Assembly: GCA_000004985.1 (NCBI GenBank)
Contig: GG738852.1
Length of the DNA: 64,000 nt
Reading direction: 5' to 3' (one strand)
DNA from: Naegleria gruberi
Taxonomy: Eukaryota
The notes below the pieces were generated by a model. The model was not told where the DNA came from and did no database searches. It saw only the letters and a list, made by a program, of their open reading frames with translations. Positions 28,741 through 38,522 of the stretch are shown here, piece by piece. Made by a program: the position numbers and the translations under genes. Every line of letters starts with the position of its first letter. The first letter of the stretch is position 1.

Positions 28741-29493
28741 TTATTTGCAAATCAATTGAAGAATCTTTTCCCTTAGATCTCTAACTTCCTCCTCGGAATA
28801 TCTCTGATAGAGACCATCCACATTCGGTGGACTACTCTCCCTACAATAGAATTCTCCTGGATAACTCTCTGGCACAACATCTGGATATTGTTGCAGGAAG
28901 AGAACTGTTGGCTCCTTTTCACTCACTTGGATGGTATGAATTTCATTCGGTGAAAGATCATAACTCTCGCCCACCTCACAATGATCAATATGATTCAAAT
29001 GAAGCAAGACCTTATTCAATCTCTCAAATTGATGTGTATGATGAAAATAAGCATACTTCCAATAGAGATCTGAATGATCTTCCTGAGCTTGTCTCTCCTC
29101 AAATACCAAATTCTTTAAACTTCCATTCAATACAGTTGTTTTAAAGTGATACCTGTGATTGTGTGGATTGGCAACATATCCCTTTCCATGCTCAACAGGA
29201 TCCAACAAGTAGACCTTCGTAGTAATATTACAACTTCTCTCCAAACATAAATAATTGACTCCCCTCACATGATAATCTTTAAATGAGTGTTCACACAACT
29301 TTTTCAATGGTAATTGCCTCAGCGACCTCTCCACATACAAACCATCCATCTGAAATACTCGATTTATCAATGTTGACATTTTTTTGTTATTGCTTTCATC
29401 AATCTCTAATTTGAATTCAAGCATCAAGGAACTTTGAAATTCGAACACGTCTTCTGATTGAAAATCAAAGATGATCAATAAATTCTTGCACAT
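28741..29493 (-). CDS. Cupin-fold protein resembling 2-aminoethanethiol/plant-cysteine-oxidase (PCO_ADO) thiol dioxygenases
   Basis: His-containing cupin motifs: GYVANPHNHRYHF, DLSPNEIHTIQV and VLFLQQYPD. The ORF track start is GTG; the first ATG gives MCKNLLIIFDF. Confidence 0.4.
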   Translation of the reverse strand: MCKNLLIIFDFQSEDVFEFQSSLMLEFKLEIDESNNKKMSTLINRVFQMDGLYVERSLRQLPLKKLCEHSFKDYHVRGVNYLCLERSCNITTKVYLLDPVEHGKGYVANPHNHRYHFKTTVLNGSLKNLVFEERQAQEDHSDLYWKYAYFHHTHQFERLNKVLLHLNHIDHCEVGESYDLSPNEIHTIQVSEKEPTVLFLQQYPDVVPESYPGEFYCRESSPPNVDGLYQRYSEEEVRDLREKILQLICK

Positions 29494-30119
29494 ATTAATG
29501 TTTTCCTCATCATCGTGGTCTCTTCGGTTTTTGTTCCGTAACCACCAGCCAGCAGCCACTTAGAAAGCCTTCATCATCACTTCTGCCAACTATTCAATGG
29601 ATTGTTTTTTTGCGGCAAAGTGCAAAATGCAAAGACGTGTTCTTAACGTTGATGAAAAAGTAGGTGCAAAAAAAATTCTCTCTTCTACACCTACCTCATA
29701 GTTTTTCAAACTTTTTTGACAAGTTCTTGTTGTTGTTTTGTGGTTTTCCTCTAAATTCCTACTACTATTACTACTCCTTTTTTAAATTATTATCAACTAT
29801 AAACCTTCCGCTCTTCATCAATATATTGACGCGAAAGGACCTACAAACTCTATCTATTTTTTAATTCTTTCAAATACAACAATTTTGTTACGTGTGCTCG
29901 TAAACTCGATACAAATTCATAATCACTAATTAGAGCCGAGTTTAGATCATTATTTACCTATAATTTCTCTCAGACTCTACTGTAGATGCCTTAACTTATT
30001 TAATATGACAATCAATTATAATTCAAACCACCATCACAAAACAACAACACCATCATCACATCTTTCTTCATCTTAAAACACCTTTTGAACAAATTTACAA
30101 TAACAATAATAATTTCAAT

Positions 30120-33100
30120 ATGGCACCAAAACATAAACCAAAGAATAATAACAAACCTAAAAACACACCGAGTAATAACACCAAGAGGCAGGATCACTCT
30201 GATCCTTCTCAGACAGGTGTTAACAAAACCAGTAATAATAACGCAATGTCAGGTATGTAATATTATACTTTTCACTGTTGATTAACCATTCTGTTTAGAA
30301 CCTAATGTACAGGGAAGATCTTTTAATTCTAATAATCAAGCCAATAGTAATAATGGTAATAACAATATTAGGAGAAATACAAGCACTTCTTCTATCACAA
30401 GTACTGACAGCAATTCGAGTAATGATGGATCTAATTCTCCACTTCCTAGAAGGAACAATACAAATTCTTTGAAGAAGAATAATCTATCAAACAACAACAA
30501 CATATCACCAACTTCTCCTAGTACTCATCAAATTAAGAGAAAACAACACGTTCCACCTCCTTTGAATACTAATTTAACACCAAAACCTAGTGAGAGGATT
30601 GAACTTGTATGGAACTGTTTAAAATCACCACTTAAACCACCAGTAAGAGGGTTTCACTCTTGTACACTAGTGGGCGATAAACTTTATATTATTGGAGGTG
30701 ATAATAGAGTGGAACACTTTAAGGATGTTTGCATTTATGATTTGAGTAAGTTTGTTCTTTTTGAAAAACAAATTGATTAACAAATTTTGATAGAAACCAA
30801 TTATTGGATTAAACTATCAGAAAATTCAAATCTTCCAATGCCTAGAACAGGCCACTCAGCAGTACTGTATCAAGATAAATTGTATTTATTTGGTGGAAAA
30901 AACGAAAACTATTACACCTCTGATCTATTTATTTACGATCTGAGGGAAAAACTATGGGACAAAGACGTACAACCCCACAATAAGAAAGTAAGTCTGACAC
31001 CAAGAGCAGCACATAGCTGCTGTTGTGTAGACGATAAAATGTATATATTCGGAGGTATCACATCATATCAAGCTAATGACGGCAGAAAAGCAAGTGAATA
31101 TATTGATGTATTATCTATGTATGATATTAGTCAAAGAAGGTGGAAAAAACCAAAAAATAAGGGTGCAGCACCTTCTGCACGTGCCGGTCATTCTTGTTGT
31201 GTTATCAACAGAGACATTTACATTTTTGGAGGAAGACAAGGAACAATTCTTTTCAATGATTTGTACAAGTATAATGTAGATTCTGAAAAATGGTCTAAAA
31301 TACAAACTAAAGGTGAGGCTCCTCAACCAAGTGCTGGACATACAATGAGTGCTTACATGGATAAGATTGTAATTCTAGGAGGTTCTGATTGGAAGAAATA
31401 TCCAACAGAAATTTATGTATTCCACATTCCAAGTAAGGTTTGGGTAAAATGCGCCTCACTCGGAATTACCACTGGTAGATTTTGGCATACAGCCACTGTC
31501 TATGAGGACAATCTTTATGTTTACGGAGGTGGTACAGTTGAACTCATTGACGATATTTATTCAATCAACTTGAGATCATTGAATGCCATTTCTGAAGCTA
31601 CTGCACTGACACCTCAAAGTTCAGCGTCTCCTGTTCCACTACCAGAAATGCCACTTCAAACATTCGCATCAGCGCTCAAATTTAAAACTATTTATAAGGC
31701 TGAGATGAGAGTGTTTGCAAAAGTTCCAAGAGATGTCACCTACTTGGAATTAAAAGAAACCATCAGCAAATCATATGGTTTCCCAGTTGTACTCAAGTAT
31801 GTAGAGCTGGATGACGAAAAAGACGAAATAACCATTGGATCAGACCGAGAATTAAGAGATTTTATCGAATGCTTTGAAGAAATGGGTAAGGGTCTGAGAT
31901 TAGAGCTTAGCGAGGAAAGAGTTGAATCTGATAGTGATTCAGAAATTGATCAAGAAGAGGAAATTCAAGCAACCACTAACGGCACAGGCATAATGTGGAG
32001 AAAAGGAGGCCTTTTGGGAAAGGGTGCTTATGGAGAAGTTTACAAAGGGCTTAATGTCAATACAGGTCAGTGGATGGCCGTAAAAATTATTGATCTCTCT
32101 GCAACTTCGGAAAAGGAGAAGAGTTTAGTGGAAAAGCAAATACTTAACGAAGTCAATCTCATGAGCGATTTACGTCATGATAATATTGTTCGGTATCTGG
32201 GAGCCGAATTCAACAGGAAAAGGACCAGACTATTCATTTATATTGAATTGGTTGACGGTGGAAGTCTTTCTGAAATCCTCAAAAATGTTGGTAAGCTAGA
32301 TGAAAGTGTAGTAAGACAATATACCAGACAAATATTGTTTGGCTTAAAATACTTACACGATAAGAATATTATCCACAGAGACATCAAGGGTGGTAATATT
32401 TTAATAGAAACAAAGAGTGGTACTATCAAATTGGCTGATTTTGGTCACAGTAAGAAAATTACAGAAAATGTACAAGCTTCTCTTCGTATTTGTGGTACTC
32501 CAATGTGGATGGCTCCAGAAATCATCAAAGAATCCAAGTATAGCAAAGCTTCAGACATTTGGAGTGTTGCTTGTACAGTAATCGAAATGCTAACAGCTGA
32601 TGTTCCATTCCCAGATCTTGTTTCACTTGAAAATACTGGTGTCATGTATAGAATTGCCACAGGTGCTGTTCCAAAAATACCAGAAAATTTGAGTGAAGAA
32701 GGTAAGGTTTTCCTTGCCAAGTGTTTCAATCAAAGTCCAGGTTCCAGACCAACTGTTGATGATTTATTGAAGGAACCTTTCCTCACAACATTGAGGTACG
32801 TTGGTGTCTCTTATCCAAATGATGAAACATCCTCAGAGGAGGAAGAAGAAGAGGACGATGAATCTTTCCCATCCCTTGATGATTCTGATTATGACGAAGA
32901 TACTAATTCTTTCGATAAGGGGAAACGTCCATTGTCAACAGGAAGCGAAGAGTCTGATGGAATGGAAAATCCAAATCCAAACAATAAGGGAAAAGGTCCA
33001 CTCGTTGAAGAGGAAGAAGATGAGGATGAAGATTTTACCGATGAGGACGAAGACGAAGATGAAGAAGATTTTTCTGATGACGAAAGTGAATCTTCTTCCT

Positions 33101-33471
33101 ACAGTGAAGATAAATCTTCTCAAAGTATCACTCAACAATTGAGAAACATTCAAGCCAACAATCCAATTTTATCTATGGGATTAAGAGGAAATTTACCAAC
33201 TCAAGCACAAGTGGCCCAAGCAGCTCAATTAAGGAGAGCACCTCCACCCCTTGTTTCAACCCCTTCGACTGGCACTTTAAGAGGTGTTTTGAGAAACGAC
33301 ATTAATCAAATGAATCCATACATTGCACAAACAGTAACACAAGTAGCTTCTACTCCAAGTTCTACTCTGAATATTGGTTCCTCAGCTTCACACAGCAAAA
33401 GTGTTACTAAAAGTGCTTGTGATAACGACGTAATGTCCTTCTTACAAACCAAACAACACAACAATCAATAA
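30120..33471 (+). CDS. Kelch-repeat / PB1 / MEKK(STE11)-like serine-threonine kinase with an acidic C-terminal tail. Exons 30120..30252, 30299..30745, 30794..33471
   Basis: Six Kelch blades (GHS..LY.FGG repeats). PB1-like module: KAEMRVFAKVPRDVTYLELKETISKSYGFPVVLKYVELDDEKDEITIGSDRELRDFI. Kinase subdomains: GKGAYGEVYKG, AVK, HRDIKGGNIL, DFG, GTPMWMAPE. Both introns (GTATGT and GTAAGT donors) verified in phase. Confidence 0.8.
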
Positions 33472-33510: not shown

Positions 33511-34702
33511 ATGTTACAACTCATTCTCATTACCACCAACACTGGTGTTCCTAAATTCAAAAAATCACTAATAACTGATCTTGACCGAGATATTTTCCTC
33601 AGACTTTCCAATCTAATAGTAACACTCTATGTAAAATCTAAACGAGAAGTTGATCATAAATTATCATATTTTGAATTAAATAATCGAGGAGTGACAATAG
33701 AAGAAAATACACAAACAAAATTATTATGTATTCTAATGCACGATATTTCCGATGTATGTTATTTCTCTAAATTTACTAATTAAAATTATATTTGAAAATT
33801 TCCATTTTTATTGGAAACTCCTTGTATCACCAATATTGACATGAAAAATTAACAACATCATTCTCATCTTTATTGTCATCTTTATATGCAGGGCCATGAA
33901 TTTGCCAAGTTAGTAGCTGAGGAATTACTCGATCGTTTCATTTCCACATTCAAAACACCATCTCTCGTTTCTAAAAAAACTCTCTATTCGAATTCATTCA
34001 AAAACAATACCATCACAACACCATCAGGATTGCCTGGTGGTGGTAGTGGTTCTTCTGGAAATCAAGTGGCCGATAAGAAATCCTCACCACAACCACAAAA
34101 TCCACCCAATTTATTTGGTGGTGTGAATTCCATTGATTTGAATGATTTGGAAACAAGTGTTGATACCTCACATCGATTTGATCAAATGATGAATGTTGAA
34201 CAATTGTCGGTCGATGATTTGGAACAGGATGAGTTTGATTTTAATAATGTGAATGTGGATGAAAAGATTTTTGAGGCCAAGTTGGCTGAAATTTACTTGG
34301 AATTGGTTTATCCAATTATTGAACATTGTAAGTGAGAGTTGAGTTTTAATTTACAAAATATTTGAAAATGTTGAAATAGTGGATAGCGTGAGAGGAATTT
34401 TAAATTCATGGGTTATTGAGAGTGGCGATGAGGGAATTTTAACCACAACTAAACCTCAATTGGAAGCAGATTTAAAGTTTCTTGTGAATAATTGCGACAG
34501 ATTACTGAATGGTGAAATGCAAAATTTATCAATTAAGGGAAATGGAAAAAATCTTCATATTGTAATTGTTGAACACAAGTGTCATTTAGTTGTCTTGTTG
34601 GAATCTAATGTACAACCTGAAATTACAAGTTTTGCCATTGAGAAGGCAGTCTTTTTATTGAGGAAAGTTTATGCACTCAGGAAGAATATTAAAATTCAAT
34701 AA
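33511..34702 (+). CDS. Longin/roadblock (tri-longin, Fuzzy/HPS1/Mon1-like) protein. Exons 33511..33753, 33892..34327, 34380..34702
   Basis: The N-terminal longin beta-strand LQLILITTNTGVPKFKKS resembles the Fuzzy/HPS1 start. The C-terminal roadblock-like segment is LHIVIVEHKCHLVVLLESN. Splice phases verified. Confidence 0.35.
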
Positions 34703-34703
34703 A

Positions 34704-37700
34704 TTATTTCTTTCTTCTCTCAAAGAGATATGATTTCAGTAATGTTTGTTTCTCTTGCTTTTCTTCTTGTGACATGGTTTTCAAGGAAAGTTGTGCGTAT
34801 ATGCCAATGTAAGCAATCTCTGGTGATGGATGAGATGAGAGTTGGAATAGCAACTTTTTCACATCTTCAGGTACTGTTACTGTTCCGTCCTTTTCCAATG
34901 CAACTCTCTCTAAATAATTAAACACACTCTCTGGAAATTCGATTGTTTGTTTTAAAGATGTCAATTTCTTGTTAAGATCAAACCATTTCTTTGCAATTGT
35001 TGTTAATCTTTTTGTAGACGTATGGTCTCTCTTGTCCGAATGTACTTTATCCAAGTTGTAAAGCAGTTCATAGATTGAAATATCCCTTAATGCTAAATCA
35101 AAATTAATACTGATTCTATTATCTGAATTGCTGCATCGAACACTGCTTGAAAGGGATTTGGGGTGTTTAATGGAATCAATATACTTGACAGTGTAAAATG
35201 ATGTGTAAATGGTATCGATCTTTTTCCCGCGTTCCTCACCCTCAAAACAAGAAGGAAATCTGAGCTTGGCCAAAGAGATAGCATAAACCCCTGTAAGTAT
35301 ACAATTCTTAAATAAATCACTACCATGTAATGAATATTGTATCTTTTCTTGATTGATTTCAGTTAATCTTAATGAGTGTAAGATTTCAATTAAATATCCA
35401 GAGTATGTTTCAATGTTCTTCTTTGTACTGAGTCGAGTCAAAGTGGTGGGTTCAGTTAATCCAGGTCTTGTTTTCTCGTAATAGAAATATAAATCAGAAA
35501 TAATAAATCTCGATAATTTCAATAGGATAAGGCTCACTGAATCATATGAACTAAAAGGAATAATCCGGCTGTTAGAATTCAAGATTGACCTGACTGTTTC
35601 AATAATTTCTAATGTTTCGAATTCTTTAGAAATATAATAATCTGCGTAATCAACTGCATCTTGATTTTCTACTTTCCATGTAAGCTTTTTACAACCATAC
35701 AAATAGTTATCAACGGGTTGACAATTTGAAAATTTCCTGATATAATCCAATTCGGTGAGTATTTCAGATTCCAGAGATGTGCTATCAGTTTGTGTTTCTA
35801 TATATCCTCTAAATTGTCTTTCTTGTTTTTGATTATTGGTACCAATATTCAAACCAAGTTTCTCAAGTATGTGTAATTCTCTTGAATATTTAAACTTGTT
35901 GAATATTGAGAGAAGGTCAAAATACATGTCAATATTTAGTTTTCTATAAATCAATAAATGGTCTGCAAATTTTCTGTGGTTACTATTGAATAAAATTGAT
36001 AGTCTAATAGTCCACGAATGGATGTTTGATAGTTCTTCTTCATCAAGACCTTCTTCTTGTTCATCTATTTGTATCAAAGAATCCCACAATTCATAAATAT
36101 AATGAATGGAATTTTCATTGTGAGGATTATTGAAATACTTTTCAGTTTGGAAATAGAAGAGCTGAGTGAGATGATTGAATTTCTTCCATTTTGAAAGTAA
36201 TTTAACTATTTCATCAAAATGAATAGTCTTATCATTGTAAACACATTCAACCAAAAGATTTGAAAATTCTTTCTCTTGTTTTTCGTCCATATTATTTGTG
36301 TGAGCGTATGTTATTATATAAATATCAGAGGTTTCATCAATTTGAGCATTATTAATAAGGTCAAATGCCTTTTCATACTCTGATTTTCTAATGTAATAGG
36401 ATGCCAAATATTTCTTCCCATCATTGGAACCTAATTCGTTGGCTCTTGTCAAATGACTTTCGCACAAGTTTTCATTATTGGTTTCACTCGATTTGTTATT
36501 CACACAATTCTTAAAAAAGTAAATTCCTAATTTTGTGTTAGCTTTTGTGAAGATATCCATCTCCAAAATAGATAATGTTTTGGAGGTTTTGGGAATGTCT
36601 TGTATTATTTGGAAAATACCAAAACCAAGAATGGAATCACTTAAATACGAAATCGAATCTAATTGATTGTCTTCTCTTTCCATTAATTGCGTGATTAACA
36701 GCCGTAAACATTTGGCTGACAAATCACACATGAAAGGATGATAAATGTCATGTAGGTCCATAACCAAAGATGAGTAACACTCATTCTTTGGACCACAAGA
36801 AAAAGGTTGCAACTTTACAATGGTCTCAATAAGTGTCTTGTAAAAATTGAAGGAGTGATCATTTTCATTGTGTGATTTCTTCTCAATGTAAGTTGTTACA
36901 ATGTCACGGCATAATTGGATCACATTAATGGATTTTCTTGCACAAGAGTTTTCTTTGCATTCCAAAAAAACAGAAGCAAGAGTTTGTAATAACTTGAGCA
37001 CATACTTGTCATTGGTCATGTTGGGCGCATTAAAGAATAAATCTCTTGCATTCATGGTCAATAAACTTGCTTCTTTCACTTGACATTCACAACAACTAAA
37101 ATCTTTTACAAATTGTAAAAAATTATCAAACTCTTCATCAGCAAGGCTTGTTTTGACTTTTTTGTTTGGATGGAGAAATTCTTGATCCTCCTTTTCTTCA
37201 TCATCTTGATGCTTTCTTTTCAACAAGTTGTTACTTTCCAAATTATCCATTCTTTCTGCAATCACATCCTGTTTCTGTCTAATTTCTGTTAATACATTCA
37301 TAATATTCTGAAACATTTCGCTATGTGTATACATATTTGATGAGGTTGAAAGCATATCAATGAGGCTATCTGAACTTTCTGAATCAAATAATAAGCTGTG
37401 TTCTTGGCTATCGTCTTCTAATGGTGGAATAATAGTGTCCTTCCATAGAGGCGTTGGATTGTCCACTGGTTTTCCCCATTCAAATTGAGTGAGAATTCCA
37501 TTCATATCATTGGATTTATGTATGAAAATTACAAAACTGTTGCCATTGACACAGTTATCTGCTTTTTCAGTGATTGTTTCATAGGGACAAAAAGGTTCTT
37601 TGCTTAATTCACCATCTTCTTTTCTTATAATTTTGTATTCATAACTTCCAGAAGAGGACTCCAATAGATGTTTAAAGAAAAATTCTTCATCGTCCACATG

Positions 37701-38522
37701 AGAATAATCATAATAATCAAAAACTCCTTGATTCAATACCTCACCGAGAATATAAATTCTGTCATTTTGCAATTCCATACCATTTTTACAAAAAACAGTA
37801 TGGAAACAACGAACAGAAGAGTCCTCAGCTTGATCTGCCAATTTAAATTCAACTTCTCTTTTGTACCATCTATAACTAAAATATCTCAATTTTCCTGGCT
37901 CAATTTCTACTAGGTTTATGTCCCTCTTAGGACCATTGATTCTCTCTTTTGAGCTTGCACCACCAGAAGTTCTTCTTGTAGTCTTGTTCTTATTATTCTT
38001 GTGACAGGGTAACATTGATTTGTCAATATTTAGTTGGATAGAGCCTTCAAGATTAATTTCCTTTCTTGATTTGTTATCATCCTCAACAAAATATTGAGAT
38101 TCTGATTTAACATGGAGTTCATCTTCACTCTTTCTCGAATAACTGGAGATTATTAGATTCAAAGTCTTATTTTTGGATGGTATTTCGCTAATGTTAAATT
38201 CAATTCCCTCCTTCTTCTTTTTACTATTCTTTTCAATAAAATTGTAGACAGTAATACATTCATGATCCTGATTGATGCCTTCATATGCAATTTCCAAATA
38301 ATCATGTTTAACATTTGAAATGACAAGTTTCGGTTCACTGTGTTTTGCAATTTCCTCAACTTTTATCTGATATGAATTACTAGCCGAATCAGCAGGCAAA
38401 ATATAGGCCCACTCTGATCTTATATCAAACAATCTACAGGAAATACTTTCATAATTTTGAGTAAATCCCTCTTCTGTTGGCTCCCCGAGTACAATGTCTT
38501 TGGGTGTTTCTTTTCTTGCCAT
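34704..38522 (-). CDS. Large orphan protein (1272 aa), helical-repeat rich
   Basis: Single uninterrupted ORF with a real ATG (MARKETPKD). No identifiable catalytic motifs. Confidence 0.5.
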   Translation of the reverse strand: MARKETPKDIVLGEPTEEGFTQNYESISCRLFDIRSEWAYILPADSASNSYQIKVEEIAKHSEPKLVISNVKHDYLEIAYEGINQDHECITVYNFIEKNSKKKKEGIEFNISEIPSKNKTLNLIISSYSRKSEDELHVKSESQYFVEDDNKSRKEINLEGSIQLNIDKSMLPCHKNNKNKTTRRTSGGASSKERINGPKRDINLVEIEPGKLRYFSYRWYKREVEFKLADQAEDSSVRCFHTVFCKNGMELQNDRIYILGEVLNQGVFDYYDYSHVDDEEFFFKHLLESSSGSYEYKIIRKEDGELSKEPFCPYETITEKADNCVNGNSFVIFIHKSNDMNGILTQFEWGKPVDNPTPLWKDTIIPPLEDDSQEHSLLFDSESSDSLIDMLSTSSNMYTHSEMFQNIMNVLTEIRQKQDVIAERMDNLESNNLLKRKHQDDEEKEDQEFLHPNKKVKTSLADEEFDNFLQFVKDFSCCECQVKEASLLTMNARDLFFNAPNMTNDKYVLKLLQTLASVFLECKENSCARKSINVIQLCRDIVTTYIEKKSHNENDHSFNFYKTLIETIVKLQPFSCGPKNECYSSLVMDLHDIYHPFMCDLSAKCLRLLITQLMEREDNQLDSISYLSDSILGFGIFQIIQDIPKTSKTLSILEMDIFTKANTKLGIYFFKNCVNNKSSETNNENLCESHLTRANELGSNDGKKYLASYYIRKSEYEKAFDLINNAQIDETSDIYIITYAHTNNMDEKQEKEFSNLLVECVYNDKTIHFDEIVKLLSKWKKFNHLTQLFYFQTEKYFNNPHNENSIHYIYELWDSLIQIDEQEEGLDEEELSNIHSWTIRLSILFNSNHRKFADHLLIYRKLNIDMYFDLLSIFNKFKYSRELHILEKLGLNIGTNNQKQERQFRGYIETQTDSTSLESEILTELDYIRKFSNCQPVDNYLYGCKKLTWKVENQDAVDYADYYISKEFETLEIIETVRSILNSNSRIIPFSSYDSVSLILLKLSRFIISDLYFYYEKTRPGLTEPTTLTRLSTKKNIETYSGYLIEILHSLRLTEINQEKIQYSLHGSDLFKNCILTGVYAISLAKLRFPSCFEGEERGKKIDTIYTSFYTVKYIDSIKHPKSLSSSVRCSNSDNRISINFDLALRDISIYELLYNLDKVHSDKRDHTSTKRLTTIAKKWFDLNKKLTSLKQTIEFPESVFNYLERVALEKDGTVTVPEDVKKLLFQLSSHPSPEIAYIGIYAQLSLKTMSQEEKQEKQTLLKSYLFERRKK

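Follow-up and report, generated by a model that had tools for sequence, protein, structure and literature searches.

Does a single gene of Naegleria gruberi encode a Kelch β-propeller, a PB1 domain, and a MEKK-like protein kinase in one polypeptide, and what would such a protein do? The question is raised by positions 30120–33471 of the 64,000-nucleotide stretch of contig GG738852.1 analyzed here (hereafter, the window), where a preliminary description made from the sequence had placed the three modules on one spliced gene. We find that the locus is a genuine single three-exon N. gruberi gene of 1085 codons. The explanation that fits it best, and that we regard as reasonably probable, is that it encodes a catalytically competent mitogen-activated protein kinase kinase kinase (MAP3K) of the STE11/MEKK class, which would be clustered through its PB1 domain and would use the propeller as an input or localization module.

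The reading frame opens with the ATG at 30120 and closes with the TAA stop codon at 33469–33471, and the spliced coding sequence is 3258 nucleotides long. Exon 1 (30120..30252, +) encodes residues 1–44 and the first base of codon 45, which cover the start of an N/S/T/K-rich disordered N-terminus. Intron 1 (30253..30298, +; 46 nucleotides, GTATGT...TTTAG, phase 1) is followed by exon 2 (30299..30745, +), which encodes residues 45–194 and contains the remaining low-complexity N-terminus, the closing L-x-W strand of the propeller, and Kelch blade 1. Intron 2 (30746..30793, +; 48 nucleotides, GTAAGT...GATAG, phase 1) leads into exon 3 (30794..33471, +), which encodes residues 194–1085 and the stop codon and contains blades 2–6, the PB1 domain, the kinase domain, an acidic tract, and a tail. 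The gene, exon, and intron coordinates of the preliminary description are exact. Retention of either intron introduces an in-frame stop. Both introns contain the heptamer GATTAAC, which ends exactly 12 nucleotides from the 3' splice site and is probably the branch-point signal. The corresponding introns of Naegleria lovaniensis have TTTTAAC in one case and no clear copy of the heptamer in the other.

A single open reading frame (ORF) of 894 codons (30787–33471) spans blades 2–6, the PB1 domain, and the kinase domain without an internal stop. Therefore, the fusion of Kelch, PB1, and kinase is independent of either intron, and only blade 1 and the N-terminus depend on splicing. The N. lovaniensis ortholog (PYSW02000004.1, L001 6001–9597) also has three exons, with both introns at aligned positions and in the same phase as in N. 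gruberi, although its introns are longer (about 83 and 68 nucleotides, versus 46 and 48). In the alignment of the two species, intron 1 splits a Glu codon (G|AR). The junction at intron 2 is identical (D-[LM] | K | T, with the Lys codon split A|AA), and the protein alignment runs over it free of gaps in Naegleria and Willaertia. The proteins of N. lovaniensis (1148 aa), Naegleria fowleri (1155 aa), and Willaertia magna (1221 aa) are colinear with the N. gruberi product through all six blades. They begin with MAPKR in N. lovaniensis and N. fowleri and with MANKN in Willaertia, compared with MAPK in N. gruberi, and residues 1–142, rich in N, S, T, and K, are weakly conserved. In Pharyngomonas kirbyi, Pellita catalonica, and Percolomonas cosmopolitus, Kelch, PB1, and kinase lie together in single complete transcript ORFs.

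The C-terminal 810 residues of the product are 100% identical to the N. gruberi protein XP_002680693.1 (UniProt D2V5H2), named "NPK1-related protein kinase", and the window is therefore from N. gruberi, not from Dictyostelium, whose kinome the preliminary description had suggested for comparison. The public model (810 aa, window 31039–33471, +) begins at the internal residue Met 276, in the middle of blade 3. Such a start is what one might see if the Kelch exons belonged to a separate upstream gene and the real protein were only a PB1-kinase. However, the public model itself joins the C-terminal half of blade 3 and blades 4–6 to the PB1 domain and the kinase, and the partial blade at its start cannot fold alone. 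The uninterrupted frame 30787–33471, the intron positions and phases shared with N. lovaniensis, the full-length orthologs with complete transcript-derived ORFs among them, and the conserved closing strand encoded in exon 2 all argue in the same direction. A gene-model artifact is therefore scarcely credible, and the single ORF has effectively refuted it already. The Kelch exons are not a separate gene, the outcome that the preliminary description had named as fatal to its proposal. Instead, it is the public N. gruberi model that is incomplete: it lacks the first 275 residues, for which N. lovaniensis, N. fowleri, and Willaertia all have conserved counterparts. As a practical outcome, the gene model of XP_002680693.1 (D2V5H2) needs correction.

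The domain content was determined by a Pfam scan of the spliced 1085-aa product, which returns the six Kelch blades, the PB1 domain, and the STE11/MEKK-like kinase that the preliminary description had read from the sequence. By the scores of these searches, all three matches are beyond chance level.

The six-bladed Kelch β-propeller (30592..31587, +; residues 143–458, split by intron 2) is of the KLHDC/LZTR1/attractin type. It matches the Kelch propeller families PF24681 and PF24981 with E-values of 7.7e-76 and 1.5e-53, respectively. Six GG Kelch repeats with the GG/Y/W pattern are located at residues 177, 227, 280, 339, 389, and 438, and the propeller is closed by a conserved L-x-W strand at residues 147–151 (window 30604–30618, exon 2). 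A full-length AlphaFold2 (AF2) model was made on the N. lovaniensis ortholog, which is 60% identical over the propeller, rather than on the N. gruberi sequence. In this model the predicted local distance difference test score (pLDDT) of the propeller is 85–95, the N-terminal closing strand included. In a Foldseek comparison, the ortholog propeller superimposes on the Kelch domain of LZTR1 and on solved six-blade Kelch domains with template modeling (TM) scores of 0.86–0.88. The modeled fold is a closed six-blade Kelch propeller.

The resemblance of the propeller to particular Kelch proteins is generic. Its best sequence matches in the Protein Data Bank (PDB) are the Kelch domains of LZTR1 (2.4e-33, 118.9 bits) and KLHDC3 (7e-33, 117.3 bits). 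Across the Kelch domains of LZTR1 and KLHDC2/3/10, Foldseek gives TM scores of 0.84–0.88 at 22–27% identity, a level of identity that is common to generic Kelch repeats and at which LZTR1 and KLHDC3 are tied. LZTR1 and KLHDC2/3/10 carry BTB–BACK domains or a BC-box, whereas the N. gruberi protein carries neither. A Pfam search of the whole protein at E ≤ 0.1 finds no BTB, BACK, F-box, SOCS/BC-box, or RING domain, and no WD40 repeats are detected in the N. gruberi protein by Pfam. An LSTGSE stretch within the acidic tract was considered as a KEAP1-type Kelch-binding motif and rejected, since the stretch is not preserved in N. lovaniensis.

The PB1 domain (31675..31923, +; residues 488–570) matches Pfam PF00564 over residues 488–565 with 30.8 bits, compared with a gathering cut-off of 23.6, and an E-value of 2.9e-7. 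PB1 is also matched in nine of nine orthologs and relatives, the best at 2.8e-13. The search profile was built with the contiguous exon-3 product, and against the PDB the family profile retrieves the PB1 domains of TFG, PKCiota, and MEKK3 at about 2–3e-9. An AF2 model of the N. gruberi PB1 segment has a pLDDT of 85.1 and the topology β1-β2-α1-β3-β4-α2-β5. The top 25 Foldseek hits of this model in the PDB are all PB1 domains, among them those of NBR1, MEKK2 (TM 0.83), MEKK3, and PKCiota; the PB1 domains of MEKK2 and MEKK3 superimpose on it with TM scores of 0.80–0.83. The predicted structure is that of a ubiquitin-like β-grasp PB1 fold.

The sequence of the domain presents two faces. The β1 Lys, K491, represents the basic face, and R499 is present as well. 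An OPCA-like acidic motif with Y529, D537, and S543 (KYVELDDEKDEITIGSDREL) follows the pattern Y..D(D/E)E.D.ITI.SD.EL. Judged by these residues, the PB1 domain is of type I/II (AB), with both a basic Lys face and an acidic OPCA face. Among the Kelch-PB1-kinases and protist PB1-kinases examined, nearly all retain the Lys and the OPCA motif; MEKK3, aligned in the same profile, has no OPCA motif.

The STE11/MEKK-type protein kinase domain (32002..32784, +; residues 597–857) matches the Pfam family Pkinase over its whole length with an E-value of 2.6e-69. Its catalytic motifs comprise the G-loop GKGAYG, K624, HRD at residues 721–723, DFG at residues 742–744, and GTPMWMAPE with APE at residues 767–769. 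K624, HRD, DFG, and APE are invariant across nine relatives, and the G-loop is likewise intact. Judged by these active-site motifs, the kinase domain is catalytically competent. Among PDB entries, MAP3K2/MEKK2 ranks first (193 bits, 7e-56), ahead of ASK1/MAP3K5 (182 bits) and of STE20-group kinases (at most 170 bits, reached by STK25). The best database kinase outside the Kelch-PB1-kinase family is plant MAPKKK5, at 41% identity, and the relatives in Thecamonas and Balamuthia are labeled "STE/STE11 protein kinase" by their sources. By sequence ranking the kinase is of the STE11/MEKK class, with modest score margins. A few residues ahead of GTPxWMAPE, the activation loops of Naegleria, Willaertia, the relatives P0005 and P0006, and Pharyngomonas carry a Ser; P0008 and P0009 either lack this Ser or have it at a shifted position.

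The kinase domain is followed by an acidic tract (32839..33108, +; residues 876–965), which is 48% Asp/Glu and predicted to be disordered. The preliminary description recognized this tract and took it for the end of the protein. The protein does not end there, because 120 further residues with 3% D/E follow and form the C-terminal tail. The pLDDT of the tail is below 50 in the AF2 model of the ortholog, and helices are predicted in the disordered tail only at two conserved motifs. Motif 1 (SQSITQQLRNIQANNP; 33118..33165, +; residues 969–984), defined by alignment, has the consensus SQSI.QQL.NI.ANNP and is a low-confidence helix at residues 829–843 of the ortholog model. Motif 2 (DNDVMSFL; 33421..33444, +; residues 1070–1077), near the C-terminus, follows the pattern [acidic]-x-[IVL]-x-x-[FY]-[LV] and is a helix at residues 958–967 of the ortholog model. 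Motif 2 is also present in N. lovaniensis, N. fowleri, Willaertia, Pharyngomonas, P0006, P0009, P0142, P0151, P0166, and P0168, as well as in a Kelch-less N. gruberi paralog, P0286, as ENDIKNFL. Autoinhibition through binding of the C-terminal motif to the protein's own propeller was considered, and this idea is weakened because P0286, which has no propeller, carries the same motif.

The preliminary description had called the architecture unusual. It is absent from characterized MAP3Ks, but it is not a one-off: the Kelch-PB1-MAP3K is a conserved, uncharacterized protist family whose sequences are already in public databases. In a profile search over 1.84 billion cluster representatives, combined with local hidden Markov models for the three domains, at least 15 further clusters at 50% identity show the order Kelch, then PB1, then kinase. 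Members occur in Heterolobosea (Naegleria species, Willaertia, Percolomonas, and Pharyngomonas), in Amoebozoa (Balamuthia mandrillaris and Pellita), and in the apusomonad Thecamonas trahens (P0161, XP_013760951.1), whose protein has an additional C-terminal WD40 propeller. Besides these lineages, at least ten metagenomic or transcriptomic clusters have Kelch, PB1, and kinase. PB1-kinases without Kelch are present in a choanoflagellate, euglenids, an ancyromonad, and a stramenopile. One metagenomic cluster, P0017 (1281 aa), has two Kelch propellers, then SAM, then kinase, with SAM in the slot of PB1.

In BLAST searches with the N. gruberi propeller, the Heterolobosea-type members are nearest (166–214 bits), and any other Kelch protein scores at most 148 bits; the propellers of Pellita, Balamuthia, and the Thecamonas type are no closer to it than generic Kelch proteins. 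In a neighbor-joining tree built from 81 kinase domains (100 bootstrap replicates), the Heterolobosea-type group has moderate support (67%), and the deep nodes have bootstrap values of 0–30%. This tree resolves neither the monophyly of Kelch-PB1-kinases, nor a sister relation to animal or choanoflagellate MEKK2/3, nor whether the fusion arose once. Because the amoebozoan and apusomonad propellers are distant and the deep nodes poorly supported, we do not claim a single origin of the fusion.

The supplementary sequence file of a survey of PB1 domains (Mutte & Weijers 2020, PMC7051960) includes the PB1 segments of D2V5H2 and of the Thecamonas protein. The same paper calls the protozoan PB1-kinases orthologs of M3K2/3 and describes C-terminal WD40 repeats, and it never mentions Kelch. 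Literature searches on Kelch combined with PB1 and MAPKKK/STE11, and on STE11 or the kinome in Naegleria, turned up no account of the Kelch-PB1-MAP3K architecture.

The other PB1 proteins of N. gruberi are the candidate partners of this one. The supplement of Mutte & Weijers 2020 catalogs nine N. gruberi entries, and we recovered the others with seven PB1 segments concatenated as one query; as a profile, these seven PB1 domains give no match at E ≤ 1e-3 in a database of 5.8 billion proteins. The recovered proteins are the PB1-MEKK paralog P0286, two SAM-PB1 proteins, an NBR1-like protein, a ZZ-PB1 protein, and PB1-only proteins. The orthologs of the SAM-PB1 proteins in N. fowleri and Willaertia are PAS-SAM-PB1 proteins. 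P0286, a "protein kinase" of 812 aa encoded outside the window, is the only other PB1-kinase in the recovered set, and its kinase domain is 38.6% identical to that of the Kelch-PB1-kinase. Its PB1 domain scores 23.5 bits against the threshold of 23.6, and databases therefore label it as a kinase only; its N-terminal 160 residues have no family match. No PB1-bearing MAP kinase kinase (MAP2K) is found among the other cataloged N. gruberi PB1 proteins recovered, a catalog that may be incomplete.

In MEKK2/MEKK3 (MAP3K2/3), as here, a PB1 domain lies directly upstream of a STE11-class kinase (residues 488–570 and 597–857 in the N. gruberi protein), and an activation-loop Ser precedes GTPxWMAPE. 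MEKK2/3 have no propeller, however, and the N. gruberi protein adds a long disordered C-terminal tail with the acidic tract and the conserved motifs. The preliminary description likened the protein to MEKK2/3, and the likeness holds for the order of PB1 and kinase but not for the type of PB1: the PB1 domains of MEKK2/3 are Lys-only (type II/B), whereas that of N. gruberi keeps OPCA too. Other protist PB1-MEKKs (P0286 and the "Kinase" PB1 family of PMC7051960) share the type I/II PB1 domain and the MEKK-like kinase, and P0286 shares the C-terminal [DE]ND[IV]xxFL motif; unlike the N. gruberi protein, they have no Kelch propeller, apart from Thecamonas P0161, which combines Kelch, PB1, kinase, and WD40. 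The plant BSU1/BSL phosphatases also have an N-terminal Kelch propeller fused to a signaling enzyme (PDB match of the BSU1 Kelch domain, 9.5e-15), but their catalytic domain is a PP1-like phosphatase, they have no PB1 domain, and the propellers are only distantly related. Dictyostelium MEKKα joins a MEKK-class kinase to an F-box and a WD40 propeller, and its F-box governs ubiquitin-dependent turnover. The N. gruberi protein likewise has a MEKK-class kinase joined to a β-propeller that may be regulatory, but it has no F-box or WD40 repeats, and the position of the propeller differs.

These observations suggest the following mechanism. The kinase, as a putative MAP3K, would phosphorylate a MAP2K. 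The type I/II PB1 domain would drive front-to-back homo- or hetero-oligomerization with other PB1 proteins of the cell, for which the paralogous PB1-MEKK, the SAM-PB1 adaptors, and the p62/NBR1-like proteins are candidates. Clustering would bring kinase domains together and allow trans-phosphorylation of the activation loop, by analogy with the dimerization of MEKK2/3. The Kelch propeller would serve as an input or localization module whose top face binds a putative protein or peptide ligand, and would not act as a substrate receptor of an E3 ligase; most plausibly, it binds an upstream regulator or a localization cue. The conserved tail motifs may be docking or regulatory elements. A scaffolded MAP3K with a substrate- or adaptor-binding propeller, as proposed in the preliminary description, is a plausible reading.

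Several points weigh against this mechanism. The full-length AF2 model predicts no confident arrangement of the domains relative to one another (predicted TM score, 0.42). The splicing of both 5' introns in N. gruberi is inferred from conservation alone. The kinase tree is too poorly resolved at depth to show that the kinase is orthologous to MEKK2/3 or that the fusion with Kelch arose once, and a PB1-bearing MAP2K may have been missed if the nine-entry catalog is incomplete. Moreover, a type I/II PB1 domain does not always self-associate: those of aPKC and MEK5 form heterodimers.

The PB1 domain of MEKK2/3 pairs with that of MEK5, and one alternative is that the N. gruberi protein is wired in the same way, as a Naegleria MEKK2/3 ortholog with an extra propeller whose PB1 domain docks a PB1-bearing MAP2K. 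The order of PB1 and kinase is that of MEKK2/3, MEKK2 is the top solved match of the kinase, the PB1 domains of MEKK3 and MEKK2 are among the best matches in sequence and fold, and PMC7051960 treats protozoan PB1-kinases as M3K2/3 orthologs. We nevertheless consider this wiring unlikely. The Kelch-PB1-kinase family keeps the OPCA motif that MEKK2/3 lack, the PB1 domains of TFG, PKCiota, and NBR1 match as well as that of MEKK3, and the kinase phylogeny does not settle orthology. The PB1 proteins recovered from the possibly incomplete N. gruberi catalog include no MAP2K, which argues against a simple MEKK2/3–MEK5 wiring, and P0286 among them is MEKK-like. A different departure from the proposed mechanism keeps the architecture and removes the activity: a pseudokinase scaffold, with a dead kinase domain, would assemble complexes through Kelch and PB1 only. 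Nothing specific favors it, and the presence of the G-loop, the VAIK Lys, HRD, DFG, and APE, invariant in nine relatives, leaves it a close to negligible chance.

The remaining alternatives concern the propeller. LZTR1 binds RAS proteins, and KLHDC2/3 read C-terminal peptides; these and KLHDC10, the closest solved Kelch domains, are all substrate receptors of cullin-RING ligases. The propeller could accordingly be imagined as a degradation or turnover module that brings the kinase, or the proteins it acts on, to a ubiquitin ligase, as the F-box/WD40 part of MEKKα or as LZTR1 and KLHDC2/3 do. The protein has none of the ligase-linking domains searched for above, which argues against a role as a degradation adaptor, and the similarity is at the generic Kelch level, with LZTR1 and KLHDC3 separated by 118.9 versus 117.3 bits; we regard such a role as improbable. 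The likeness to LZTR1 and KLHDC2/3 may still point to possible ligands, although it proves nothing. In its boldest form, the propeller would be a direct sensor of the MAP3K that binds a Ras-family GTPase in the manner of LZTR1, or a short peptide or C-terminal motif in the manner of KLHDC2/3, with the Kelch-PB1-MEKK near the ancestral state and MEKK2/3 derived from it by loss of the propeller and of the OPCA face. This proposal is a long shot, and GTPase binding by the propeller is speculative. If the sensor proposal is true, it would reveal an ancient route into the MAP kinase cascade that is independent of RBD or RA domains.

We therefore return to the MAP3K clustered by PB1, with the propeller as an input or localization module, as the preferred explanation. 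The known inputs of MEKK-class kinases are the SAM/RA domains of Ste11 and Byr2 and the one-faced PB1 domain of MEKK2/3. If the proposed mechanism is true, a ligand-binding propeller combined with a two-faced, potentially polymerizing PB1 domain would be a third signal input to a MEKK-class kinase. The family is distributed over three eukaryotic supergroups and includes the pathogens N. fowleri and B. mandrillaris, and it is therefore relevant to the early wiring of eukaryotic MAP kinase cascades. It would also present a regulatory surface specific to protists on a kinase found in two amoebae that infect the brain.

The gene lies in compact surroundings. The window is 33.6% G+C and gene-dense, with 26 ORFs of 250 codons or more, counted over the two strands; no tRNA genes are found in 1–64000. 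The next gene (33511–34702, +) begins about 40 nucleotides past the stop codon of the kinase gene. It apparently consists of three ORF segments (33511–33783, 33886–34335, and 34379–34702) that encode about 346 aa without a Pfam match. A 347-aa gene, also without a Pfam match, occupies the same position in N. lovaniensis, which suggests conserved synteny downstream of the kinase gene in the two species. Farther downstream, an ORF on the opposite strand (34704–38522, −) runs uninterrupted for 1272 aa, with no significant Pfam match. On the upstream side, an ORF of 272 aa (28741–29559, −), also with no significant Pfam match, is oriented divergently from the kinase gene and shares with it an intergenic region of 560 nucleotides.

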